From Candidatus Bathyarchaeota archaeon (lineage in GTDB: Archaea > Thermoproteota > Bathyarchaeia > Bathyarchaeales > Bathycorpusculaceae): a DNA stretch of 64,000 bases. Below, one piece after another: positions 3,822-55,961 of the stretch. A model generated the notes under the pieces. The model worked only from the letters and a program-made list of their open reading frames with translations, was not told the DNA's origin and did not search any database. Position 1 is the first letter of the stretch; each line of letters opens with the position of its first letter. The stretch is taken from contig CAWHXY010000007.1 in assembly GCA_963833575.1 (NCBI GenBank), positions 631,273 to 695,272 of the forward strand, given 5' to 3'. The position numbers and the translations under genes were made by a program.

Positions 3822-5111
3822 CTATTCAAGGTGATACGCTTCTTCTCCATGTTGACTGATATCTAATCCGTCTTCTTCTTCTTTTGGACTAACTCGCAGT
3901 GGCGAAAATACGTCTACTAACCGCAGGAGCAAGTAAGAGCCGCCAAAAGCGAAGGCAGAAACAACTAGTACTGCAAGTACTTGTACACCAAGCAGAACAA
4001 GGTTTCCATCAACTAATCCGTGGACGAGAGGATTCACCAAAGCGGTTGCGAACAAGCCCACAGCAATAGCGCCGATTATCCCGCCGATTCCATGGCACGC
4101 AAAAACGTCCAATGTATCATCTATTCTTGATCTCCCTGCTCGCCAGTTAGCTACCAAGTTAGAAACTATGCCTGCTACTAAACCAATAATCACTGCTGCC
4201 ATGAAGCTGACATATCCTGAAGCTGCAGTAATTGCTGCTAAACCGCATACTGCACCTACTGCAATACCTATCGCTGAAGGCTTGCCCTTTATTAGCCAAT
4301 CCATTATCATCCAACTTACGGCTGCAGCGGCAGCTGCCAAATTGGTAACAACTACAGCTGAAACAGCAAGATTGTCGGCTGCTAACGCGCTACCGCCGTT
4401 GAAGCCGAACCAGCCGAACCACAGTAGACCAGCGCCCAAAATTACATAGGGAATGTTTGTTGGTTTAAACTCCGTTCCCGCATTTGCCGGTTTACTTGCG
4501 CCTTTCTGGTCTAAGGCTTTAAGCTGATCTTTCCAATAAACGACGCCTTTTCTTCGGCCAACAACAAGAGCAGCCGCCAACGCTGATAATCCTGCAGCTA
4601 CGTGAACAACTATGCCGCCTGCAAAATCAACAGCACCCAACACATGAAGCCAACCGCCGACATTCCATATCCAGTGGGCAATCGGGGAGTAAACGAGAGT
4701 GGACCACAAAACAACAAAGATCAATAATGATTTGAATTTGATTCTTTCTGCACATGCCCCTATAATTAGGGCTGGTGTGATAGCTGCAAACTTGAGTTGG
4801 AATGCAAAGAATAGAATTTCGGGAATAAGTGGCGCGTAGGATGTGTTAACTGTGTTTATTGTTATGCCGTTTAATCCAAATAAGCTCGGGCTGAAACCTA
4901 TGATGCCACCTACAGTTTTTCCATAAACGAAGCTGTAACCCCAGAAGAACCAGACGAGGCTAACTACTGCAAAAATAATGATGCATTGAACAAGAGTAGA
5001 AACCAGGTTTTTTCTTCGAACTAAACCACCGTAAAAGAAAGCCAAGGCTGGAGTCATTAGCATTACTAGAGCTGTGGATGTTAGTACCCATGCGATGTCA
5101 GCTGCCGCCAT
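3822..5111 (-). CDS. amtB: Ammonium transporter (Amt), copy 1
   Basis: DFAGGIVVH, LWFGWFGFNGGS, DDTLDVFACHG, GLDISQHGEEAY. ATG at 5111 aligns with the start of copy 2. Confidence 0.95.
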   Translation of the reverse strand: MAAADIAWVLTSTALVMLMTPALAFFYGGLVRRKNLVSTLVQCIIIFAVVSLVWFFWGYSFVYGKTVGGIIGFSPSLFGLNGITINTVNTSYAPLIPEILFFAFQLKFAAITPALIIGACAERIKFKSLLIFVVLWSTLVYSPIAHWIWNVGGWLHVLGAVDFAGGIVVHVAAGLSALAAALVVGRRKGVVYWKDQLKALDQKGASKPANAGTEFKPTNIPYVILGAGLLWFGWFGFNGGSALAADNLAVSAVVVTNLAAAAAAVSWMIMDWLIKGKPSAIGIAVGAVCGLAAITAASGYVSFMAAVIIGLVAGIVSNLVANWRAGRSRIDDTLDVFACHGIGGIIGAIAVGLFATALVNPLVHGLVDGNLVLLGVQVLAVLVVSAFAFGGSYLLLRLVDVFSPLRVSPKEEEDGLDISQHGEEAYHLE

Positions 5112-5389
5112 TATCTCTCCCCTCTTTAGCGTTACTACTGATTGCTTGTTCATGCATCTTGGGAAAACTAATATTTAAACTAAGCATTCGATTCGATATT
5201 TGTTGTTATTATTGATAAATGCGCAGAAAAGCGCTTGCTTTACCGCCATTCTTTCAATATTTATTTTGAATGAAAGGATTTTATGGAAACATGTCCAAAA
5301 AAATGGGTTCAAAACTTCAGAATGTTCCAAGAAAAAAGTAAGTTAGAATTAAACTAAAAAAGAATATTTGTGAGGATTGGCTCGATCTC

Positions 5390-6679
5390 TCAATCGAGCT
5401 GATATGCTTCTTCGCCATGTTCGCTTAGGTCTAAGCCAGCGTCTTCTGCCTGTTCACTTACTCGTAGTGGTGAGAATATGTTCACCAATCTAAGCAATAA
5501 GTAGGAACCAAAGAACGCAAATGGAACTACTACGCCGACTGCTGCTAACTGAACAAGCAACTGATGTGGATTTCCGAAGAGAGCACCGTTAACGCCGGGA
5601 ACGCCTACTGTTGCACTGATAGCTGCTGAGGCGAAGAGTCCTGTTGCAATTGAACCCCATATTCCGCCGACACCATGGCAAGCAAACACATCTAGCGAAT
5701 CATCCACACGCGATCGGCCTGCTCTCCAATTTGCAACTAAGTTCGAGATAACTCCTGCTGCTAAGCCAATGATTAATGCTGATGAAACGCTGACGTACCC
5801 TGCTGCAGGTGTAATTGCGACCAATCCCACCACAGCTCCAACAGCGATACCTGTTGCTGAAGGTTTCCCTTTGATTACCCAGTCTGAAAGCATCCAACTT
5901 ACCGCAGCTGCCGCCGCCGCAAGATTTGTGGTTACAAGTGCTGAGACCGCTAAGTCATTTGCGGCTAACGCACTGCCCGCGTTGAAACCAAACCAGCCGA
6001 ACCACAGAAGTGCAGCGCCGAGCAAAACGTAAGGAATGTTTGTCGGTTTGAACTCGGTCGCGTTGTCTTTTTTGTCTAATGCTTTCATGGCGTTTTTCCA
6101 TGGGACCGCACATCCTTTTCTTCTGCCCACTACTAGTGCTGCGGCTAATGCCGAAAGGCCTGCTGAAATGTGGACTACGATGCCGCCTGCAAAGTCGATG
6201 GCTCCCAAGTTGTGTAGCCATCCGTTAGGGTTCCATACCCAGTGCGCTATTGGGACGTAGATAAGCGTAGACCAGAGAACCATGAATATGAGGAGCGATT
6301 TGAAGCGAATTCGTTCTGCGCAAGCGCCAATGATTAAGGCGGGTGTGATTGCTGCGAACTTTAGTTGAAATGCGAAGTATAGCAGTTCAGGGATTTGCGG
6401 CGCGAGTGATGTGTTAACCGCATGTATGTCTAGGCCGCTCATGCCTACTAAGCTTGGGCTAAAGCCGATTAAGCCGTTGATGCTGTTTCCAAAAACTAGG
6501 GCGTATCCCCAGAGTGCCCAGATAATGCTTACGACTGCGAATATTATGAAGCATTGTACGATTGTTGATACCAGGTTTTTCCTTCGTACTAGGCCTCCGT
6601 AGAAGAATCCTAGTGCTGGTGTCATTAGCATAACTAATGCTGTTGCCGTTAATACCCATGCTATGTCTCCTGATGCCAT
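5390..6679 (-). CDS. amtB: Ammonium transporter (Amt), copy 2
   Basis: Same Amt signatures; close paralogue of the adjacent gene. Confidence 0.95.
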   Translation of the reverse strand: MASGDIAWVLTATALVMLMTPALGFFYGGLVRRKNLVSTIVQCFIIFAVVSIIWALWGYALVFGNSINGLIGFSPSLVGMSGLDIHAVNTSLAPQIPELLYFAFQLKFAAITPALIIGACAERIRFKSLLIFMVLWSTLIYVPIAHWVWNPNGWLHNLGAIDFAGGIVVHISAGLSALAAALVVGRRKGCAVPWKNAMKALDKKDNATEFKPTNIPYVLLGAALLWFGWFGFNAGSALAANDLAVSALVTTNLAAAAAAVSWMLSDWVIKGKPSATGIAVGAVVGLVAITPAAGYVSVSSALIIGLAAGVISNLVANWRAGRSRVDDSLDVFACHGVGGIWGSIATGLFASAAISATVGVPGVNGALFGNPHQLLVQLAAVGVVVPFAFFGSYLLLRLVNIFSPLRVSEQAEDAGLDLSEHGEEAYQLD

Positions 6680-45024: not shown

Positions 45025-45714
45025 TTGAAGCGGCAAAGCATGAAAATTAAAACAAAATTATTAGCGCTTGGAGTTGCCATAGTAATCATTTCGTTAGCAA
45101 TAACACCAACCATCTTGCAAACACTTGGATACGAAAACAGTCTGCCTAACCGAATTCATGTTGCATGTGTTGGCGACAGCATAACCGCGGGAACAGAATA
45201 TACTATTGACCTTTGGACTTTGCTTGGCAGAAATTACGTTGTAGGAAACTTTGGTGATCCAGGAGCCGGAGTTTCGTCTCTTTCGGATAAACCGTATATG
45301 AATCAATCTGCATTTCAACTCGCTTTGCAATTTGAACCTAAAATTGTAATTATAATGCTTGGAACCAATGATGCTCATACAACTCTTAATGAAACTAACA
45401 CAGATTTTGTTAATAGTTACGTCAAGCTTGTAAATGAATTTCAAGGGTTGGCAAGCAAACCTAAAATTTGGATTGTGACCCCACCCCCGATTTTTGAAAA
45501 TGACGCAAACCTAAGCAGTCAGTTTATTCCTCAAAATGTGATTCCAAACATTGAACAAGTAGCAAAAACAACTAATGCTCAACTAATTGATGTTTATTCT
45601 TCTTTAACTGACCATTCTAACTATTTCGCTGATGGAGTTCATCCTGACGCAGAAGGCTCACACGCAATTGCAACAACAATTTATAACGCCTTAATATCAC
45701 AAAATAAGCCTTAA
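45025..45714 (+). CDS. Secreted SGNH/GDSL esterase (paralogue of 29534-30298)
   Basis: VACVGDSIT, GNFG, KPYMNQ, LGTND, DGVHP. Confidence 0.9.
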   Translation: MKRQSMKIKTKLLALGVAIVIISLAITPTILQTLGYENSLPNRIHVACVGDSITAGTEYTIDLWTLLGRNYVVGNFGDPGAGVSSLSDKPYMNQSAFQLALQFEPKIVIIMLGTNDAHTTLNETNTDFVNSYVKLVNEFQGLASKPKIWIVTPPPIFENDANLSSQFIPQNVIPNIEQVAKTTNAQLIDVYSSLTDHSNYFADGVHPDAEGSHAIATTIYNALISQNKP

Positions 45715-46032
45715 CTAGACGACATAATATTTGGACTGGGCGCGTGCACCATTACTTGTGTAAAACATTATCTTAGACATTGAGCAAGTCATAAATTGAA
45801 CTGGCATGCTTGCAATTGACTTTTGCAATTCCATGTTTAGCCACACAAAGCAGTTTCCTGACAGCTTTTGCCGGAAAGCGACGGAACACAAACAATCGCG
45901 TACTTTATTTTCGCTCTGATAATTTCATACAAGGATTCGTTAGATCGAGCTAGATGGCGGAAAAGCCCGAAATAAACACGGTTAGCGCATCTCGCCAAAT
46001 GTTATATTAGCTCAAGAAACAACTGTTAGTTC

Positions 46033-47025
46033 ATGAAAACTGAAAATGCAATCGATCATTCCTTAAGGATTCTGAGCGAAAAGAGTGACAAATCAATTGA
46101 GTTATTTAAGCAAATGAATTTACAGGAAGCAAAAGGCAATGAAAGATTAACCAAGGTCATTGAACAATACCTTTCAAGATGGAGAGACACTACAAGACCT
46201 GGAATGTTGGCTTTGGCCTTTGAAGCAGTAGGCGGTGAACAGGATAAAGCATTGCCCCTTCAATTTGCCTTATTACATATCGATGCTACAATGGATATTC
46301 ATGACGACATTATCGATGAATCTGTCGCCAAGAAGAACAGGAAAACGGTTTATGGTAAGCTAGGTAAGGAAGCAACATTACTCATTGGTGATGCGTTCAT
46401 GGTTAAAGGTTTCCACTATCTCCACAAGGCAATAGAAAACCTTCCTGCAGACCAGAGATCAATGATTATGAATGGAATACAAGATTTTCTCTCTGAAGTG
46501 GTCGAAGCACATTTATCTGAAGTTCCTTTAAAAACAAAAAGATTGAAAGTTAGACCAGAAACATATTTTCAGATCTTGCAAAAAAAAGCCGCCGACATCG
46601 AGGGGCGTATGAAAGTAGGCGCTATCTACGGTGGCGGCTCTGCGAAACAAATCGAGGCTTTGAGTAAATATGGAAGAAACATTGGCGTTCTTTTGGCGGT
46701 GAGATCAGATTTTGTAGACATTTTTGAGCCAAGCGAGCTTATGCACAGGATAAAATACGAAGTCTTGCCGCTTCCGATTCTCTACGCACTTAGAAGCCGA
46801 AAACATGGGAAACAGATCCAAGAAATCTTAAAAAGAGATTGTCTCAGTAGTGAGGACTGTGGCGAGATGGTGGATGTTGTTTATGAGACAAAAGAGTTTG
46901 AATTCTTAAGAATGCATTTGAAAGATTTAGAAAAGGAAGCGGAAAACACAGCAGAAATAATTTCCAATGAAAAAACTAAGGAACAGCTTCAGCGGTTGGC
47001 CGCTTCCATGCTGGAAGACTTATAG
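46033..47025 (+). CDS. Divergent polyprenyl synthetase-family protein (ComQ-like candidate)
   Basis: First Asp-rich motif HDDIID is intact, with A.L.GD. The second motif is degenerate (SDFVD), and GKRxR, RRG and GQxxD are replaced by DTTRP, KKN and AHLSE. Confidence 0.85.
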   Translation: MKTENAIDHSLRILSEKSDKSIELFKQMNLQEAKGNERLTKVIEQYLSRWRDTTRPGMLALAFEAVGGEQDKALPLQFALLHIDATMDIHDDIIDESVAKKNRKTVYGKLGKEATLLIGDAFMVKGFHYLHKAIENLPADQRSMIMNGIQDFLSEVVEAHLSEVPLKTKRLKVRPETYFQILQKKAADIEGRMKVGAIYGGGSAKQIEALSKYGRNIGVLLAVRSDFVDIFEPSELMHRIKYEVLPLPILYALRSRKHGKQIQEILKRDCLSSEDCGEMVDVVYETKEFEFLRMHLKDLEKEAENTAEIISNEKTKEQLQRLAASMLEDL

Positions 47026-47183
47026 ATACTTACCAAACCAGAACCTTTGGTTTTCTCCTAATTGCTCGGCGCTTCTCCATTTCTCCTCACCTGTATATTT
47101 GTTGTACATATCTACTCATATAAGCTTTGTCATTACACAAGATACGCTATCAAAAAACATAGCTAAAATTAATATTAACCATC
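46929..47183 (+). repeat. 255-bp direct repeat, copy 1
   Basis: Identical by eye to 47238-47492 (offset 309). Confidence 0.9.
47030..47080 (-). CDS. 16-aa basic peptide MEKRRAIRRKPKVLVW, copy 1
   Basis: GGTGAGGAG ribosome-binding site 2 nt before the ATG; AAAG-CTTATAT BRE/TATA-like element at about 47118-47128. Confidence 0.6.
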   Translation of the reverse strand: MEKRRAIRRKPKVLVW

Positions 47184-47237
47184 ATCAAAATCAAATTTGA
47201 CCACTGCAGACCTGATGGGGTAAAAAAATTTACCTAA

Positions 47238-47492
47238 AGAAAAGGAAGCGGAAAACACAGCAGAAATAATTTCCAATGAAAAAACTAAGGAACAGCTTCA
47301 GCGGTTGGCCGCTTCCATGCTGGAAGACTTATAGATACTTACCAAACCAGAACCTTTGGTTTTCTCCTAATTGCTCGGCGCTTCTCCATTTCTCCTCACC
47401 TGTATATTTGTTGTACATATCTACTCATATAAGCTTTGTCATTACACAAGATACGCTATCAAAAAACATAGCTAAAATTAATATTAACCATC
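47238..47492 (+). repeat. 255-bp direct repeat, copy 2
   Basis: Duplicates the prenyltransferase 3' end, the peptide gene and its promoter. Confidence 0.9.
47339..47389 (-). CDS. 16-aa basic peptide MEKRRAIRRKPKVLVW, copy 2
   Basis: Identical copy within the duplicated segment. Confidence 0.55.
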   Translation of the reverse strand: MEKRRAIRRKPKVLVW

Positions 47493-47519
47493 CACAAAAT
47501 TAGTATTCATCGGCCTGCA

Positions 47520-48887
47520 GTGCATAGTAGAGAGAAAATGCGTAAAACCACAATTAGAGAGTCATTTCCTTCACTATTTCTGCTAATCAATAGCATTGTC
47601 TGGTTTTCTCTCTCGTGGTTTGTTATTCAAAATTATATTAGCAACACTTCTTTTGACAACATCTTGCTTGTATCTTCTTCCTATTTCGGGGCTCTTCTAT
47701 TATCAGCCGTAGTTGGGGCTACCTTGCTGCGCAAGAAATTAGCAGGAAAAATCGCGTTGTTGTCCTGGGTTTCGTTTGGAGCAGTCACATGCCTGCTTTC
47801 GGCAGTCTTAGTTCATGGAGCAAGTTCGATAAGTCTGGTTTTTTTTTCAATTCTTCTCGGAGCATTGGCAGGATTAGGTATCCCAACTTGCCTCGCATTA
47901 TTTTCAGAAGTCATAAAGTCAAATAATCGGGGGCGCAGTGGAGCAGTAGCGTTCTTTCTAATTCAAGCTATGACGGTCCTGATCTACATTCCTACTAGCA
48001 GCGCAAATGTCGATAACCAGTTCCTAGTTCTCGCGGCATGGAGACTAGTAGGCGTTCTAAGCATATTTTTCTGGGTTCCTCGTAAGAAAATTTCTGAGGA
48101 GAGTGAAAACAAGCTCTTAACCGTCATCCGAGAAAGAACTGTTTTTCTCTTATTCATTCCATGGTTTCTACTCACCATCGTAAACTTCGTGGAACAACCT
48201 CTAGTCCAGAATTACTTTGGAACAAACCTATACAACACCTACCAGATGGCTGAAATTCTAATCACCAGCGCTTCAGCTTTTGTCGGAGGAGTAATTTGCG
48301 ACTTCAAAGGAAGAAAAGTTTCAGGTATTATAGGCTTTATCTTGTTAGGCGTAGGCTACGCCTTTCTAAGCCTTTTATCTTCTGGATCACAGTTACCTGC
48401 AACACCGTCTATTGGAACACAGGTCTTCCAAATTTTATGGGTGTTGTTTGACGGAGTTGCTTGGGGATTTCTATATGTTACCTTCATCTTCGTAGTCTGG
48501 GGAGATATTTCCGAAGGGAGAGCCCGTGAAAAGTATTACCTCTTAGGCGGTATACCCTTTCTATTGTCAAATTTAATCTCAGTTTTGGTTGAGCCCTTTG
48601 CAGAACATGCTCAAATAGGTGCTTCGTTCTCTATCGCCAGCTTCTTCCTGTTCGTAGCAATTTTGCCCCTGCTCTATGCTCCTGAAACTTTATCCGAAAA
48701 AACCCTCAAGGACCGTGACCTCAAGAGCTATCTGAACAAGGCACAGAAACTCGCGCAAAAGGAAAACGAAAAAAACAAAAAGCAAGAAGGGCAAGAAACT
48801 GAAGAGGAAAACAAAGAAGCAGACGAAAAAGATCAGGAAAGCCCCGAAGATGAAGAAGCTCGGAAGTTAGCGGAAAAATACTATTAA
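47520..48887 (+). CDS. MFS-like 12-TM membrane protein with charged C-terminal tail
   Basis: About 12 hydrophobic helices, G.ICDFKGRK (MFS motif A-like), RGR, APETL. Confidence 0.8.
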   Translation: MHSREKMRKTTIRESFPSLFLLINSIVWFSLSWFVIQNYISNTSFDNILLVSSSYFGALLLSAVVGATLLRKKLAGKIALLSWVSFGAVTCLLSAVLVHGASSISLVFFSILLGALAGLGIPTCLALFSEVIKSNNRGRSGAVAFFLIQAMTVLIYIPTSSANVDNQFLVLAAWRLVGVLSIFFWVPRKKISEESENKLLTVIRERTVFLLFIPWFLLTIVNFVEQPLVQNYFGTNLYNTYQMAEILITSASAFVGGVICDFKGRKVSGIIGFILLGVGYAFLSLLSSGSQLPATPSIGTQVFQILWVLFDGVAWGFLYVTFIFVVWGDISEGRAREKYYLLGGIPFLLSNLISVLVEPFAEHAQIGASFSIASFFLFVAILPLLYAPETLSEKTLKDRDLKSYLNKAQKLAQKENEKNKKQEGQETEEENKEADEKDQESPEDEEARKLAEKYY

Positions 48888-48912
48888 GCCAGGCACTGTA
48901 CACACTTAAGTT

Positions 48913-50043
48913 ATGTTCTTCCATGTGATCCTCACTTCCGAGTGCAATTTGCAGTGCCGTTATTGTTTCGGAGAGTCTTTGGATGATTTTGATGAAGAGT
49001 TCGGTGACGACATAGAAGTGGACTATGCGCTTCCCCGCAAAATCAAGTATGACATTGAGTTGCTGGAGAGTTTTTGCAGAAAGGATCCTGATTGCGTCTT
49101 AACTTTTTACGGGGGCGAACCCTTGCTTTGCACCGACAAAATCAAGCAGATAATGGATACCGTGAAGCCTAAACATTTTATGATTCAAACAAATGGCTTG
49201 CTGCTGGACAAGTTGGAGCCAAAATATCTCAACTGTTTCCACACAATCTTAGTATCAATAGATGGCGAAGAAACCTTAACCGATTTTTACAGGGGAAAAG
49301 GCACGTACCGCAAAGTAATAGATAACCTCAAACAACTCAAACGGAACGGCTTTACTGGGGAATTGATTGCAAGAATGACCGTTATGGAGCAAACGGACAT
49401 ATACAAACAAGTCCGATTTCTTCTTGACAACGACGAATTTCCTTTTGCCTCCGTGCATTGGCAATTGAACGCCGGATTTTGGGGGAACGATTATGCAAGG
49501 CGGAATTTTGAAGAGTGGGCAAGAACAAGCTACGTTCCTGGCGTAAAACAACTGACAGGGTTCTGGGTTGACAAGATGGAGCAAGAAGATGTCATTTTGA
49601 AACTTTACCCCCTGCTGGGCATCGCCGATTCGCTTTTGCACCAAGAGAAAAATTGCCTTATGCGATGTGGTGGAGGCTGGATAAACTACGCCATCCAAAC
49701 TGACGGTAACATTATTCCTTGTCCAACAATGTGGGGAATGAAAGAGCACTATATAGGCAACATATGCGATTCTGATCCGCTTAAATTAAAGAAAATCTTT
49801 GTTGATCAGCCTCCATGTGTGAACTGTTCAATTCTCAATGTTTGTGGGGGGAGATGCTTGTACGCAAATATAACTAAGCGTTGGAATGATGAAGCTTACT
49901 GCAAAGTTTGTCACACTGTTGCTGAGCTTGTACAGGCGGTAGAGCTTGAAGTTCCAAAAATTCAGAAATTAATCAAGAACAATAAAATAAGCTTGAAAGA
50001 TTTCGATTTTATGAAATACAACGGCTGCGAAATAATCCCATAA
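48913..50043 (+). CDS. Radical SAM/SPASM protein (resembles the archaeal AF0577/TIGR04084 putative peptide-modifying family)
   Basis: CNLQCRYC, FYGGEP, QTNG, SIDG; SPASM CGGG...DG.I.PCP...C..C.....CGGRC...C. Confidence 0.88.
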   Translation: MFFHVILTSECNLQCRYCFGESLDDFDEEFGDDIEVDYALPRKIKYDIELLESFCRKDPDCVLTFYGGEPLLCTDKIKQIMDTVKPKHFMIQTNGLLLDKLEPKYLNCFHTILVSIDGEETLTDFYRGKGTYRKVIDNLKQLKRNGFTGELIARMTVMEQTDIYKQVRFLLDNDEFPFASVHWQLNAGFWGNDYARRNFEEWARTSYVPGVKQLTGFWVDKMEQEDVILKLYPLLGIADSLLHQEKNCLMRCGGGWINYAIQTDGNIIPCPTMWGMKEHYIGNICDSDPLKLKKIFVDQPPCVNCSILNVCGGRCLYANITKRWNDEAYCKVCHTVAELVQAVELEVPKIQKLIKNNKISLKDFDFMKYNGCEIIP

Positions 50044-50309
50044 TTTAGTTCATAAATAAATCCTGGAATAATCCATTTGATTATTTCCTCTTTTAGAACA
50101 AGTTTATTTCCTTCTAATTCAATGATATTCAAAGCCTATTGCGCTGAAGTCTGTTTAGTGTATTTGTTGCATGTTGCATAGCCGTAGCTGTAATCTGCAC
50201 CTTTTTTAACATAACCTTCTAAACACATCCGGGTCTTCAATTTTTGTATTTAATAAAACACGGTGCTACATCCAATTAAGTTGTTAACTATAAATAATCC
50301 CTCTTTACA

Positions 50310-51458
50310 GTGATAATGAGCAGTAGGGGGGAACTCAATAACTGGAGTGGCGCAAAAAGGTGGACAAGGAAATTGGATGATGTTTTTGATGTAGGAATTG
50401 TTGGGGCTGGTGTTGCAGGTTCTACATGTGCTCAGGTGCTAGGAGAGGCAGGAATTAGTGTAGCGCTCTTTGATAATTCGCATCCTAGGGAAAAACCGTG
50501 TGGTGGACTACTTGATAACAGAATTGTTGACGAGTTCAGCATTCCGAAACAGGTTCTAGAGAACGAGATAAAGTGGATCTTAGCTGAAAGATACGCATTC
50601 CAGAAAAGATTATTTATTGAGCCTTCGATGTTTATTGTTTCAAGAAAGGATTTTGACCACTACTTGCTCGAAAGAGCATTAAGGAACAACAGTGTGGTAT
50701 TTTACGAAGAAAAGGTAAACCACCTATCTGGGGGGCAAAACGACTGGACCCTTATAACAAACAAGGATAGGTCTGTAAAAGTCAAATTTCTTATAGGAGC
50801 AGACGGGTGCCCATCGCTTGTAAGACGATACGTCTCAAATCCTATTGATGCGAAACTCGTTGCGCCAACTGTGGGCTACATTTTTCAATGTTCAAGTAAA
50901 TACTTGCAGGAAAACTTCGAGCCGAATACTGGGGAGGTCTACTACTCACAAACATACGTTCGAAAAAGAGGTTTCATATGGATTTTCCCAAAGAAAAACA
51001 GCATAAATTTCGGCATAGGAGCGATGGAACCAGGAAGAGAACTCAGACTATCGTTGGATAAATTTCTCTTTTCCCACCCTGCTGGAAAGCGACTGAGGAC
51101 TCTCAAGGGGCATTTATATGCTGGCTTGGTTCCGCATATATGGCAAAAAGATTTCTTCGACAGACCCTGTACCGGTAATAACTGGGCATTGATAGGCGAC
51201 GCGGCAGGACATGTAGATTCAATAGGCGGTGCAGGAATCTATTATGCAATGAAAGGCGGAATGCTTTGTGCCCAGGCGTTTCTACAAGGAAACATCCACC
51301 TCTTTGAGAAATCATGGCGACAAGAGTATGGCGACGAACTTTACAATGCTGCCGGTAATGTACTAAAATACTACGGCAAAATGGGATCATTCCTTTGGTT
51401 TCAATATTACTTGCGAAACGTATATGATAGACTTCACAGGCGACAAATTATCAACTAA
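50310..51458 (+). CDS. Geranylgeranyl reductase-family FAD-dependent oxidoreductase
   Basis: IVGAGVAG, KPCGG, R..FD..L, IGADG, GFIWIFP, GDAAG.V....G.GI.YA. Confidence 0.88.
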   Translation: MIMSSRGELNNWSGAKRWTRKLDDVFDVGIVGAGVAGSTCAQVLGEAGISVALFDNSHPREKPCGGLLDNRIVDEFSIPKQVLENEIKWILAERYAFQKRLFIEPSMFIVSRKDFDHYLLERALRNNSVVFYEEKVNHLSGGQNDWTLITNKDRSVKVKFLIGADGCPSLVRRYVSNPIDAKLVAPTVGYIFQCSSKYLQENFEPNTGEVYYSQTYVRKRGFIWIFPKKNSINFGIGAMEPGRELRLSLDKFLFSHPAGKRLRTLKGHLYAGLVPHIWQKDFFDRPCTGNNWALIGDAAGHVDSIGGAGIYYAMKGGMLCAQAFLQGNIHLFEKSWRQEYGDELYNAAGNVLKYYGKMGSFLWFQYYLRNVYDRLHRRQIIN

Positions 51459-52038: not shown

Positions 52039-52299
52039 TTATAGTTTTTTGTAAACTACATCTTTAACTTTTATTGGTTGCTCCACTTTTAGTCCGATGC
52101 TTTGTCCACATTCAGCTCGTTGGATATCTTTACGGTCTATTTGCATTGATTCTACGATCTGTTCAAGATCAGTTGATGGACCTTTGATAAGTATATGTTC
52201 TCCAATTGTGAGAGGCGATGTTAAGTTTACAACTGCAACGTTGATTTTGGCGAAAAAATGTGCAATATACCCTATTTCGATTATGTCTTCTTTAATCAA
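52039..52299 (-). CDS. Small translation-factor-like beta-barrel (U32 peptidase C-terminal-like) protein
   Basis: IG...HFF.KI.VAVV, L..G..I.IKG..TD..Q.V.SMQI, G..IGLKV. Confidence 0.8.
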   Translation of the reverse strand: MIKEDIIEIGYIAHFFAKINVAVVNLTSPLTIGEHILIKGPSTDLEQIVESMQIDRKDIQRAECGQSIGLKVEQPIKVKDVVYKKL

Positions 52300-52830: not shown

Positions 52831-53280
52831 CTAAAAAGTAGTTGACAACTCTTTGACTCGGGTTTCAATGAATTCTGCTACTTTTTGCTCACTGAACTGT
52901 CTTTCGTCTTCCTGCAATTGTAATTGCTCCTTAACTGTTGCAAGAAGCTTTTCAACATTTACAGGCTTAATTAGGTATGCGTCTGCATTCTTGTTTAAAG
53001 CTGTAATCGCGTTCTGCATTGATGGGTAACCAGTCACCATTATTTTTCGTGTTCTTGGAAAGGGGTCTTTGATTAGTTTCAATAGTTCTACACCTTCCAT
53101 ATCAGGTAGTCGAATATCCAACAACGCTAGATTGTAGGCGGTTTTCTGTGTCTTTTCAATAGCTTCGCTTCCAGTAGCAGCTAAATCCACAATGTATCCT
53201 TCATCCTCAAGTATTGTTTTCATTGTGTTCCTTATGTTTTCGTCATCGTCGATAACGAGAATTTTGGCGTTTCTATCCAA
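52831..53280 (-). CDS. Stand-alone response regulator (REC domain)
   Basis: ILVIDDD, LLDIRLPD, TG, KP. Confidence 0.93.
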   Translation of the reverse strand: MDRNAKILVIDDDENIRNTMKTILEDEGYIVDLAATGSEAIEKTQKTAYNLALLDIRLPDMEGVELLKLIKDPFPRTRKIMVTGYPSMQNAITALNKNADAYLIKPVNVEKLLATVKEQLQLQEDERQFSEQKVAEFIETRVKELSTTF

Positions 53281-55961
53281 ACTTTTTCACCTCCAATTTC
53301 ATTTTCAGTTTCAGTTGGTAGAGTAACTTTGAATGTTGTTCCAGCTCCATTGGCTGTCCTTACTGCTATTGTTCCTCCATGTGCTTCGACGATACGTTTG
53401 CATATAGCTAAACCAAAACCCATACCCTGAGCTTTCGTAGTAAATAATGGGGCAAACAGTTTTGGCAAGATTTCATCAGGAATACCAACTCCCGTGTCTG
53501 CAAAAGAAATTTCCAGTTCCCCGTTTGCCTCTTTACTATCAATTGTTAGCTTACCTACGTTTGGCATCGCTTCAATACCGTTTTTAATCAAGTTAATGAA
53601 AACTCTTTTAATTTTGTCAGGGTCAACTTTTATGAGTGGCTTTTCTGAAACATTATTTAGTATTTCCACTTTTTCAGGCACATCCATTATGGCCATAGAT
53701 TCTATTATCAAGTTTCTTGGCGAGTAATCTTGCAAGTCTAAATGTATTTCTCTTGAGTAATCCAAAAGATCGCTAACAATCTTATTTGAATAATTAACGC
53801 AACTGTCGATTGTTTCAAGCATTTCGTCGGCTTGAGATTCAGGAATTGTTTTACCTTTCTTTTTTAGGAAATATGTAGCGTTTTTAATGCCTGATAAAGG
53901 ATTACGTAAATCATGCCCAACCATCCCAGCTAACTCACCGATAGCAGCCAGCCTTTCGGACTTAACAAGTTTAGTCTGCGTCTGCTTTAGTTGCTCAGTT
54001 CTCTGCTTAACGAGGTCTTCAAGTCTTTGAGAATATTTTGATAATTCACATTGCAATTTCTTAATTTCAGTTATATCCAGTCCAAGTTCAAGCACGCCAA
54101 CAACGTTACCCTCTTTATCTTTCATCGGCGTAGCAGTAACTTCCAATATTATATTTTTGCCATTTTTGTTGACCGTCAATTCGTGAATATCAATTATCTT
54201 TCTGCCAAAAATTTTCTCCGCACCGCAGTCTAAACAGATGTGATCCCTGCCATGAATAGCTGAATAACAAGTTTGATTCACTACTTCGCCATGGAGTTGT
54301 TTACCAAACTTGTTCATCCAAGTAATTCGGTAGTCCTTGTCGAGTAACATGAGAGAAGCACTGATGTTTTCTGTAATGGCTTCAAGCTTGTTGCGTTCCT
54401 CCCGGATTTTCTCTTCGAGTTTTTTCTTCTCAGTAATGTCAACTGTCAGTTCTAAAGCCGCAATGACTTTTCCATCTTTATCTCTAATTGATGTGGCGAT
54501 GAGTTCAAACCAACAAGGCTGACCCTTATCCTGTAATTCTTTGTTCAAATACTCCCGTGTATCTAATTGAGCGCCTTCAAAAATTTTCTTAGGTCCACAG
54601 TCCGGGCATACGGTTTTTAGAGTATTGAAAGTTGAATAGCACATTTTATTGCAAACGTCTCCATTCAAAGTTTTCAAAAAGTTGTTAGTCCAAAGTATCC
54701 GGTAATCCCTATTGACGATAACTAAGCCAGCACCAATGTTTTCCGTGATGTTCTCAAGCATGGCCCGCTCTTGGTCAACAGATGTTTCCATCTGTTTTTG
54801 CTTCGTTATGTCATGAAAAATGCAATGCAGCAACTTTTTGCCTGCAAATTCAATGGCTCTTGTAGTAACTAAAACATTTTTAATATCGCCATTTTTTGTT
54901 AAATGTAATGTCTCAAATTCTCCTCCGCCTTGAGTTATCATTTCCATGATATGCAATTTTGTCTCGTCGGTTGATTCCTTAGCTTCTATGTCAAAAATGG
55001 TAAGTTTTTTGAATTCTTCTCGGGAATAATCAAGTTGCAAATGAGCCTTGTCATTAAATTCGACGAAGAGAGCAGTTTTTGGGTCAACAACTAAGACGCC
55101 TAATCGAGCTTGATCAAACAAAGCGTAGTAGCGTTGTTCCGCTTCTCTCATTTTTTGGTCGGTTTGTTTCTTGTTTGTCAAATCTTTTACTAACCCAACG
55201 GCGCTCCATTTTCCACCAAACTTTATCGGTGATATTGCCAATTTCGCTGGGAATTCGCTGCCGTCTTTGCGTCGCCCGACTAATTCAACATCTCCAACTG
55301 TAAAGTAACCAGTGCCTGTTTCGGCGAATGTTTTTACAGATGCCTCAATACGCGCTTTTCCTTCTTTGCACATTGTGTTTGGAACAACAAGCTGGTGCAA
55401 ATCTTTGCCGACTGCAGCTTCACTGGAATACCCAAAGATTTTTTCTGCGGCAGAATTCCAATAAGTAATTTGTGCTTCCTCATTTACCACGATTATAGCA
55501 TCTCTGACAAAATTGGTTATACCTTGAAATTTTTCTTCGCTTTCAAGCAAATCTTGCTGAAGCTGTTGTTGATGTTTTGATCTTTCAGTGACATCATCAA
55601 AAACCACAAGATCTAATGATTTTCCTTCGTTTCTAATTCGAGTGCCTTTTACTTCTAGGCGTCTGACCTCACCATTCTTGGCCCTTAGTGTAATTTCATA
55701 AGCCGGGATGTTTGACTTTTCAAACCTTTTTTTCATTTTTTCCATTATTAACTGTTTATAATGCTCGTCGATAAAACTTAGTTCAGCTAAGCTTTTTCCT
55801 ACTAGTTCTTTCTTTGAATAGCCAGAATATTTTTCCAAAACGCTATTTGCAGCTACAATGGTCCTAGTACTATCTATGACAATTGCTGGGTCAGGAATAA
55901 GGTCAATCAACACCCGTAGACTATCGTTATGTTCGTTGTTCTTGTTTTTGTTCTTCTGCAT
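53232..55961 (-). CDS. Multi-PAS sensor histidine kinase
   Basis: Five PAS-like domains (two with Cys-rich CY...C.DC), GHDLRNPL, N.IKN, DTG.GI, FTTK..GMGFGL. Confidence 0.93.
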   Translation of the reverse strand: MQKNKNKNNEHNDSLRVLIDLIPDPAIVIDSTRTIVAANSVLEKYSGYSKKELVGKSLAELSFIDEHYKQLIMEKMKKRFEKSNIPAYEITLRAKNGEVRRLEVKGTRIRNEGKSLDLVVFDDVTERSKHQQQLQQDLLESEEKFQGITNFVRDAIIVVNEEAQITYWNSAAEKIFGYSSEAAVGKDLHQLVVPNTMCKEGKARIEASVKTFAETGTGYFTVGDVELVGRRKDGSEFPAKLAISPIKFGGKWSAVGLVKDLTNKKQTDQKMREAEQRYYALFDQARLGVLVVDPKTALFVEFNDKAHLQLDYSREEFKKLTIFDIEAKESTDETKLHIMEMITQGGGEFETLHLTKNGDIKNVLVTTRAIEFAGKKLLHCIFHDITKQKQMETSVDQERAMLENITENIGAGLVIVNRDYRILWTNNFLKTLNGDVCNKMCYSTFNTLKTVCPDCGPKKIFEGAQLDTREYLNKELQDKGQPCWFELIATSIRDKDGKVIAALELTVDITEKKKLEEKIREERNKLEAITENISASLMLLDKDYRITWMNKFGKQLHGEVVNQTCYSAIHGRDHICLDCGAEKIFGRKIIDIHELTVNKNGKNIILEVTATPMKDKEGNVVGVLELGLDITEIKKLQCELSKYSQRLEDLVKQRTEQLKQTQTKLVKSERLAAIGELAGMVGHDLRNPLSGIKNATYFLKKKGKTIPESQADEMLETIDSCVNYSNKIVSDLLDYSREIHLDLQDYSPRNLIIESMAIMDVPEKVEILNNVSEKPLIKVDPDKIKRVFINLIKNGIEAMPNVGKLTIDSKEANGELEISFADTGVGIPDEILPKLFAPLFTTKAQGMGFGLAICKRIVEAHGGTIAVRTANGAGTTFKVTLPTETENEIGGEKVWIETPKFSLSTMTKT

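Follow-up and report, generated by a model that had tools for sequence, protein, structure and literature searches.

Organization of the Locus

The window analyzed here, a 64,000-nucleotide (nt) stretch of contig CAWHXY010000007.1 of a Candidatus Bathyarchaeota archaeon, carries a compact locus in which a gene for a prenyltransferase-like (PT-like) enzyme, a very small open reading frame (micro-ORF) on the opposite strand, and a gene for a major facilitator superfamily (MFS) transporter lie next to one another. These three elements, the enzyme, the micropeptide, and the transporter, form a conserved unit. An earlier note, made from the letters of the sequence, had named them together with a neighboring radical S-adenosylmethionine (rSAM)/SPASM enzyme gene and a geranylgeranyl reductase (GGR) gene, and had read the locus as a source of a Trp-prenylated, exported peptide comparable to the ComX pheromone of Bacillus, which is modified by ComQ. 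All of these elements are present where the note had placed them, and the features of the conserved unit are as follows:

46033-47025, plus strand: PT-like gene (trans-isoprenyl-diphosphate-synthase-like paralogue), 330 amino acids (aa), PF00348 at 81.6 bits against a cut-off of 27
47030-47080 (stop codon included), minus strand: micro-ORF copy 1, MEKRRAIRRKPKVLVW, a 16-aa basic peptide with a C-terminal Trp
47083-47091, minus strand: Shine-Dalgarno-like element GGTGAGGAG of copy 1, 2 nt upstream of the ATG
47118-47128, minus strand: TATA/BRE-like element AAAGCTTATAT of copy 1, 37 nt upstream of the ATG
46929-47191, unstranded: direct repeat copy A, spanning the 3′ end of the PT-like gene, the micro-ORF, and its putative promoter
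47238-47500, unstranded: direct repeat copy B, comprising 32 codons of PT-like 3′ sequence and the second micro-ORF unit
47339-47389, minus strand: micro-ORF copy 2, same peptide as copy 1, divergent from the MFS gene and 131 nt from its start
47520-48887, plus strand: MFS-type transporter gene, PF07690 at 39.9 bits against a cut-off of 33.4

The stop codon of micro-ORF copy 1 lies 4 nt from that of the PT-like gene on the opposite strand. The sequences that had been read as a ribosome-binding site and a TATA box of this ORF are present; GGTGAGGAG and AAAGCTTATAT are both kept in nine related loci, and the region containing them probably acts as a promoter. Routine gene calling does not extend to ORFs as short as 16 aa, and the peptide gene had gone unnoticed.

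A feature absent from the earlier note was revealed by a repeat search, namely a 263-nt direct repeat (copies A and B above) with 99% identity and a spacing of 309 nt. The repeat doubles the last 32 codons of the PT-like gene, the duplicated 3′ fragment being 97% identical, together with the entire micro-ORF and its upstream elements, thereby yielding a second complete peptide gene. The spacer between the PT-like and MFS genes is 494 nt in the window versus approximately 190 nt in relatives, which corresponds to the usual length plus one repeat unit. Because the repeat duplicates the peptide gene along with its putative promoter, copy 2 is the one that is divergent from the MFS gene. Tandem duplication of the micro-ORF is also found at another Bathyarchaeia locus, L014 (143 nt, at a spacing of 222 nt), and two tandem copies spaced by approximately 85 nt occur in five of 16 loci of a second archaeal class, Methanomethylicia; the duplications in the window, in L014, and in Methanomethylicia arose independently. 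Rfam yielded no family in 45500-48000, and a scan for bacterial-type promoters and terminators, a model that is not applicable to archaea, gave no match.

Conservation of the Micropeptide Gene

Conservation of the micro-ORF was assessed in a pooled set of 43 PT-like loci of Bathyarchaeia, in which micro-ORFs were called by a rule-based finder. An antisense micro-ORF lies beside the stop codon of the PT-like gene in 40 of these loci. Together, they encode 37 different peptides, which are 12-22 aa long and have a median net charge of +6. Its stop codon is located at most approximately 70 nt from that of the PT-like gene, and the two are mostly 1-8 nt apart or overlapping. All 18 of the first loci holding the spacer contain a basic ORF of 15-22 aa on the opposite strand right after the synthase stop, and eight more loci, reached via the rSAM gene, contain the same antisense ORF. 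The convergent orientation, entered as a caveat in the earlier note, is the conserved arrangement. Relatives of the PT-like paralogue are labelled Bathyarchaeia or Bathyarchaeota in public sources. The micro-ORF stays with the PT-like and MFS genes at loci where no rSAM gene adjoins (L171b, L172, L176, and L177), and none was seen at L124-126, where the PT-like gene is missing.

In the lineage of the window, the peptides differ in sequence between loci. Among the 37 Bathyarchaeia peptides, Pro is present in all and P-x-R in 25; Trp is found in 26, within the last four residues in 24, and at the very terminus in 11, with several peptides containing Gly-Trp. An aromatic residue is located in the tail of 31 of the 37 peptides, and Cys occurs in one only. 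A search of six micro-ORFs of 20-22 aa against Pfam and NCBIfam assigned no family, the single listed match being GAS2 with an E-value of 0.1. The specificity of these calls was controlled in two ways. A post-hoc rule, which is passed by 33 of the 40 micro-ORFs, was satisfied by 41 out of 5800 anchors drawn at random from these loci, and a loose peptide motif retrieved four ORFs from the whole 2.75-Mb genome, two of which are the copies in the window. Furthermore, nine close 16-aa Bathyarchaeia ORFs display a synonymous to non-synonymous ratio of 112/274 in frame versus 58/363 and 49/358 out of frame, these being counts of differing codon pairs.

The most powerful coding test was obtained outside the class of the window. 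When 301 genomes of the phylum were searched with a profile, 42 proved to encode the PT-like paralogue; 16 of these belong to a family of Methanomethylicia that was represented by 25 genomes. Proteins of this family bear the public names Methanosuratus, Methanosuratincola, Methanomethylicaceae, and Verstraetearchaeota, and Methanosuratincola is available in enrichment or pure culture. An antisense micro-ORF with the core K-x-Y-x-P-T-x-[VI]-R-x-W occupies the same position in 16 of 16 fetched Methanomethylicia loci; its Trp is located 2 to 6 residues, mostly 4 to 5, from the C-terminus, and the core is nearly invariant, unlike that of the Bathyarchaeia peptides. Both classes have P-[VI]-R-x(0-3)-W as their common core. 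Thirteen distinct DNA versions of the Methanomethylicia ORF differ 198, 131, and 465 times at codon positions 1, 2, and 3, respectively, and their synonymous to non-synonymous counts are 283/280 in frame versus 79/566 and 50/627 in the other frames. The bias toward third positions and the excess of synonymous changes in this frame only indicate purifying selection on a translated peptide. The micro-ORF is thus a real gene under purifying selection, and it is very probably tied to the enzyme and the transporter. The Trp-bearing small ORF that had been anticipated beside homologues of the enzyme was accordingly found on scanning, with Trp in 26 of the 37 distinct Bathyarchaeia peptides and at 16 of 16 Methanomethylicia loci.

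In two of the Methanomethylicia loci (L167, 6240-7229, minus strand, and its equivalent in L174), a protein of 320-329 aa without a Pfam match is encoded directly upstream of the PT-like gene; it comes after a CBS-domain protein and overlaps the start of the PT-like gene in L174. The possibility that the 329-aa protein represents a second synthase-like gene was rejected (hhalign probability 0.05).

Structure and Motifs of the PT-Like Enzyme

The PT-like enzyme belongs to the trans-isoprenyl diphosphate synthase superfamily, as indicated by its PF00348 score and its synthase fold. Its AlphaFold2 model has a predicted local distance difference test (pLDDT) score of 92.5, and the closest solved structure is the geranylgeranyl diphosphate (GGPP) synthase of Pyrococcus, 1wy0 (Foldseek TM 0.80; 117.6 bits), with the indole prenyltransferase Ord1 ranking eighth and scoring approximately 70 bits. 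The enzyme nevertheless scores far below every NCBIfam synthase cut-off, the best being IdsA with 106 bits versus 468, whereas the canonical synthase of the same genome reaches 211 bits with PF00348. A canonical synthase is also present in six of six genomes checked, so that the PT-like protein is an extra copy, and it is encoded in 44 of 61 genomes of the family of the window. In a quick maximum-likelihood tree, 68 PT-like proteins are separated from six canonical proteins with an SH-aLRT (Shimodaira-Hasegawa-like approximate likelihood ratio test) support of 100; L116 was left out of this tree because of its length (<250 aa), and L123 and L127 grouped with the loci that have a micro-ORF, although neither has an accepted ORF.

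Alignment of the window enzyme with the canonical synthase of its own genome reveals that the first Asp-rich motif (HDDIID) is kept, whereas GGKRWRP is replaced by D-TTRP, RRG by KKNRK, and KT by KK; in addition, the canonical FQMQDDILD around the second motif reads LAVRSDFVD and the Lys-rich loop is deleted. The same tendency is observed across the family, in which RRG becomes K-x-x-K/R, KT becomes KA or KK, and FQ becomes hydrophobic residues and Arg. Hence all elements of a chain-elongating synthase that bind isopentenyl diphosphate (IPP), i.e., GKRxR, RRG, KT, FQ, and the Lys loop, are replaced or deleted. By contrast, the first Asp-rich motif is intact in 56 of 57 PT-like rows: HDDIID is exact in 54, two have the conservative variants HDDLID and HDDIVD, and the exception is L178 (IIDDVID), which lacks a micro-ORF. 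The earlier statement that the first DDxxD is kept and the basic IPP-binding motifs are lost is therefore borne out by both the alignment and the motif table of the family.

The second Asp-rich motif was described as lost, and the window indeed reads SDFVD; however, across the family the motif follows [D/E/S/A][D/E]xxD, and many members linked to a micro-ORF keep DDxxD, so that its loss is not a family trait. Loss of the second motif as a mark of peptide-linked enzymes was accordingly rejected. Overall, the motif pattern suggests that the PT-like enzyme can bind and ionize an allylic diphosphate and does not condense it with IPP; the intact first motif, the lost IPP site, and the status as an extra paralogue fit a non-elongating prenyl donor enzyme similar to ComQ.

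Two further observations concern this enzyme. The His just before the first Asp-rich motif (His90 in the window, codon 46300-46302) is near-invariant in PT-like rows, and the canonical enzyme has Ile at this position; the sole PT-like gene without this His, that of L178, is also without a micro-ORF. The His may be a catalytic residue. Furthermore, L171 contains two tandem PT-like genes, at 4179-5258 and 5245-6252 in the orientation of the locus. A micro-ORF comes after the second gene but not after the first, and the latter keeps DDxxD at its second motif; the same gene pair is present in a second genome.

The Transporter and Hypervariability in Bathyarchaeia

In all 33 loci for which wide flanks are available, the PT-like, MFS, and rSAM genes share one order and one orientation. 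The nearest Atlas clusters of the MFS protein are MFS transporters of Bathyarchaeota. In the C-terminal part of the transporter (encoded at 48650-48887 in the window), a variable acidic tail comes after an invariant A-P-E-T-L ... K ... R ... L ... Y ... K-A. The helix after the last membrane segment is cytoplasmic and conserved, and the extreme C-terminus is kept in the majority consensus, outside the invariant and near-invariant columns, among 13 aligned sequences. The conserved stretch may serve as a docking element; a complex prediction for the MFS protein and the PT-like enzyme returned a score of 0.00, which gives no verdict either way.

In pairwise comparisons of 32 complete cassettes, median identities amount to 34.7% for the PT-like enzyme and 34.9% for the MFS protein, compared with 68.6% for the rSAM enzyme. 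The PT-like and MFS proteins co-diverge with a correlation of r = 0.90, whereas each is correlated with rSAM at approximately 0.3. The flanking leucyl-tRNA synthetase (LeuRS) is 70-85% identical in comparisons in which the PT-like and MFS proteins are mostly 30-45% identical, and the latter do not follow the LeuRS ranking. In a genome of the same genus, the sole PT-like paralogue is 34% identical to that of the window, and same-genus PT-like alleles are spread over several deep clades of the quick tree. The enzyme and the transporter of Bathyarchaeia therefore appear as hypervariable alleles between conserved flanks, a pattern that suggests specificity groups. Such a pattern resembles the polymorphism of comQXP in Bacillus. 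Separately, the cassette of L017, on a contig labelled Baldrarchaeota, is near-identical to that of L018, labelled Bathyarchaeota (branch lengths 0.0028 and 0), which indicates either mis-binning or a very recent transfer.

Neighboring Genes Outside the Conserved Unit

The two enzyme genes downstream of the transporter, both of which the earlier note had included in the candidate system while allowing that they may be unrelated neighbors, are as follows:

48913-50043, plus strand: rSAM/SPASM gene, TIGR04084 at 308.8 bits against a cut-off of 225, full length
50310-51458, plus strand: GGR-family gene, TIGR02032 at 168.4 bits against a cut-off of 158.8

A flavodoxin gene is next after the GGR gene on the plus strand. 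The rSAM gene is probably co-transcribed with the MFS gene, and its product is the sole TIGR04084 member in this genome. With its rSAM core and SPASM domain, the protein is similar to maturases of the PapB, MftC, and DynA type; the closest named relatives are PapB (109.5 bits), then a nif11-type maturase and DynA. The CxxxCxxC motif starts at residue 11, and no N-terminal recognition domain is evident. Unlike those maturases, however, the TIGR04084 family is found mostly in unrelated contexts, and its link to a peptide is not conserved. Complete trios lack an adjoining rSAM gene at L171b, L172, L176, and L177 (two other Bathyarchaeia families) and at the Methanomethylicia loci searched, L167, L173, and L174; the annotated neighbor genes around L167 also include no rSAM. 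Conversely, the rSAM gene occurs alone at L117 and L120, and with the MFS gene only, without a micro-ORF, at L124-126. Among 60 loci fetched via TIGR04084 matches, 52 have neither a PT-like nor an MFS gene within 4 kb upstream, and ten upstream genes sampled at these loci are unrelated to the module, including UvrA-, LeuA-, PurL-, and TopoVI-A-like genes. Within L055-L114, Bathyarchaeia TIGR04084 genes that are 34-60% identical to that of the window lie beside such unrelated genes. A search of the literature for TIGR04084 and AF0577 returned unrelated matches only, and the general function of the family may not involve peptides. The candidacy of the rSAM enzyme as a core maturase is weakened by the trios without rSAM and the rSAM genes without a trio, and it is doubtful that it acts on the same product as the PT-like enzyme.

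Of the three GGR paralogues in this genome, that at the locus ranks third and has the lowest score. A GGR gene adjoins six of the 33 loci; in four it lies upstream of the PT-like gene, in one it separates the MFS gene from the rSAM gene, and in the window it follows downstream. Its inclusion in the system is not supported by this distribution; rather, the sporadic occurrence in three positions suggests an optional accessory acting on a prenyl chain, for example by reducing it.

Sensing of the product by nearby kinases, as formerly suggested, is also disfavored. Histidine kinase genes are located near 11 and response regulator genes near seven of the 33 loci, and such genes adjoin none of L167, L173, and L174, the Methanomethylicia loci whose neighbors were examined; a role of these kinases in sensing the product is very unlikely. 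In the window, such a pair occupies 52831-55961 on the minus strand, where a 909-aa multi-PAS histidine kinase gene overlaps the start of a gene for a 149-aa response regulator by 49 nt. Other recurrent neighbors include an 86-aa small barrel protein (52039-52299 in the window), found in 15 of 33 loci, a pair of PadR-type regulators upstream in 10, and LeuRS upstream in 15.

Proposed Mechanism and Relation to Known Peptide Prenyltransferases

We infer a pathway in which the PT-like enzyme would bind and ionize an allylic prenyl diphosphate via its first Asp-rich motif and, having lost the IPP site, would not elongate the chain. The ribosome would supply a leaderless cationic peptide of 12-22 aa with the core P-[VI]-R-x(0-3)-W, to which the enzyme would transfer the prenyl group, on the Trp indole where Trp is present, as ComQ, PalQ, and StheQ do. 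The MFS protein would then export the lipopeptide, which may act as an extracellular signal or an antimicrobial. In some lineages, the TIGR04084 rSAM enzyme and the GGR paralogue might tailor the product, e.g., by reduction of the prenyl chain, outside the conserved core. We assign a probability of roughly one half to this reading, i.e., that a leaderless peptide is prenylated at or near Trp and then exported in a manner similar to ComQ, PalQ, and StheQ but of independent archaeal origin; for the narrower claim that the enzyme prenylates the peptide, the odds are likewise about even. The observation in the earlier note is thus confirmed and extended, and its interpretation is partly supported: the proposed Trp-prenylated, exported peptide is favored by the conserved ORF and by enzyme motifs that fit a non-elongating, ComQ-like donor, and disfavored by the incomplete occurrence of Trp.

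In three sources, trans-isoprenyl-diphosphate-synthase-like peptide prenyltransferases are described from bacteria only. These enzymes, namely ComQ, the P domain of ChrPC, PalQ, and StheQ, have in common that they modify a Trp near the C-terminus of a peptide (PMC13290415; PMC10853753; bioRxiv 10.64898/2026.08.29.745113). In the same accounts, PalQ needs a C-terminal Trp, and a Gly before this Trp favors the reaction (PMC13290415; PMC10853753; bioRxiv 10.64898/2026.08.29.745113). According to the preprint, StheQ prenylates a Trp second from the C-terminus and possesses one Mg site only, located at the first Asp-rich motif, and ComX pheromones have no consensus (bioRxiv 10.64898/2026.08.29.745113). 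A literature search, in which subscription journals and supplements were not covered, found no archaeal peptide-based signal or prenylated ribosomal peptide, in agreement with the earlier note, which knew of no such system described in archaea.

The archaeal loci resemble these systems in several respects. As in ComQ/ComX, a small peptide gene adjoins the enzyme gene, Trp is located near the C-terminus, if not universally, and both the enzyme and the peptide vary strongly between close relatives. PalQ of Paenibacillus alvei is likewise trans-isoprenyl-diphosphate-synthase-like and prenylates a C-terminal Trp, and the 11 Bathyarchaeia peptides that end in Trp can be compared with PalX, whose proposed core peptide ends in basic-aromatic-Trp. 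In StheX of Sphaerobacter thermophilus, Trp is near the end, as it is in Bathyarchaeia, mostly within the last four residues. The canonical archaeal short-chain isoprenyl diphosphate synthases (GGPP synthase and IdsA) share with the PT-like enzyme the all-helical fold and the same first Asp-rich motif, and they are its best sequence and fold matches; they differ from it in that the IPP-holding residues are replaced in the PT-like enzyme, which is always a second copy. The archaeal enzyme is nearer 1wy0 than Ord1 by the scores given above, and it was therefore probably recruited independently. Moreover, the archaeal partner is an MFS transporter, whereas that in Bacillus is the ComP/ComA kinase pair. 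The PalX cluster includes a histidine kinase, whereas kinases are not conserved neighbors of the archaeal loci, and the pseudo-second motif of StheQ is N-D-x-x-x as opposed to that of the archaeal family.

Several observations weigh against the proposed prenylation and export of the peptide. In one source, a Gln that immediately precedes the second motif is proposed to recognize Trp in ComQ, PalQ, and Ord1 (PMC13290415, section 2.4), whereas this position is mostly Arg in the archaeal family, as in the window, and otherwise Lys, Gly, Asn, Asp, or Ala. Known precursors have leaders (ComX; the NHLP domain of PalX; StheX, 69 aa) and, in the case of ComX, are co-oriented with the enzyme gene, whereas the archaeal peptides are 12-22 aa long, leaderless, and always convergent with the enzyme gene; substrate recognition would thus have to differ from that in known systems. 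Trp is missing in 11 of the 37 Bathyarchaeia peptides and is therefore not the universal acceptor, and six have no aromatic residue in the tail. No micro-ORF was accepted at three of the 43 Bathyarchaeia loci, i.e., L116, where the PT-like gene is truncated or displaced, L127, where it is displaced, and L123, which has a 10-aa candidate ORF. Finally, PT-like genes without a micro-ORF exist at L168-170 and L175 (two other families of the phylum), L171a, and L178; therefore, the enzyme family can work without the peptide.

Alternative Explanations

It is possible, though on the unlikely side, that the PT-like and MFS proteins serve to synthesize, and then export or flip, a prenylated compound or terpenoid that is not a peptide. 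The micro-ORF would in that case encode an accessory small protein, such as a regulator of, or a partner for, the enzyme or the transporter; alternatively, convergent transcription of the micro-ORF would control the PT-like mRNA at its 3′ end. The PT-like genes that lack a micro-ORF fit this explanation, as do the six peptides without an aromatic acceptor and the very short, leaderless nature of the peptide. Because the stop codons are 1-8 nt apart or overlapping, the micro-ORF transcript must enter the 3′ end of the PT-like gene, and the link to GGR suits any isoprenoid product. However, purifying selection acts on the peptide sequence and not on the RNA alone, the core keeps a Trp near the C-terminus, as used by known peptide prenyltransferases, and the repeated tandem duplication of the peptide gene is better suited to a gene for a substrate or product than to a regulator.

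A regulatory role, in which the micro-ORF would encode an arrest- or attenuator-type peptide that senses a metabolite and tunes the convergent PT-like gene or the divergent MFS operon, appears improbable. The peptide is short and basic with conserved Pro and Arg, and some Bathyarchaeia versions end in R-A-G-P, R-I-A-P, or R-V-L-P right before the stop, endings that we take to resemble arrest motifs of the SecM and ApdA type. Nevertheless, no gene lies downstream on the micro-ORF strand to be regulated, neither the Trp core shared by two classes nor the tandem copies would be accounted for, and the co-divergence of the PT-like and MFS proteins between conserved flanks indicates specificity determinants rather than a generic arrest signal.

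Still less probable is that the peptide chiefly serves the TIGR04084 rSAM/SPASM enzyme as a substrate, for instance for an Arg/Lys-Trp cross-link, with the PT-like enzyme being unrelated. This explanation draws on the peptide maturases that are the closest named relatives of the rSAM enzyme and on the position of its gene after the MFS gene in all 33 loci of one set. It is contradicted by the peptide genes that accompany the PT-like and MFS genes with no adjoining rSAM in four Bathyarchaeia loci and in the Methanomethylicia loci searched, by the rSAM genes without a peptide at L117, L120, and L124-126, and by the 52 other TIGR04084 loci with no PT-like or MFS gene within 4 kb upstream; furthermore, rSAM divergence barely tracks that of the PT-like or MFS proteins (r ~0.3), and Cys occurs in one of the 37 peptides. 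Lastly, an untranslated frame that by chance spans a conserved promoter or terminator, to which the T-run just after the PT-like stop (minus-strand Lys-Lys-Pro codons and possibly an archaeal terminator) might point, is close to refuted by the dominance of third-codon-position variation, by the synonymous excess in this frame only, by the start, stop, length, and Shine-Dalgarno-like element conserved across two classes, and by the control of 41 in 5800.

Implications and Perspectives

If the peptide is indeed prenylated, incubation of the enzyme with a 12-22-aa peptide and a prenyl diphosphate would produce a mass shift, and such short, leaderless substrates would be potentially useful for enzymatic peptide lipidation. 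In the full scenario, Bathyarchaeia and Methanomethylicia would make leaderless micropeptides on the ribosome, prenylate them with a synthase-derived enzyme of independent archaeal origin, and export them by a dedicated MFS pump; in Bathyarchaeia, alleles would be exchanged between the conserved flanks, leaving close relatives with different specificity groups. This scenario is speculative and unlikely to hold in every part; if it did, it would represent an archaeal counterpart of the Bacillus pherotypes, in the form of peptide-based kin discrimination, quorum sensing, or lipopeptide warfare. As a first archaeal case of a lipid-tagged peptide signal or antibiotic, the trio itself is nonetheless a strong candidate. 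In uncultured archaea, the extreme allelic diversity between conserved flanks would offer a new case of social or antagonistic traits that diversify.

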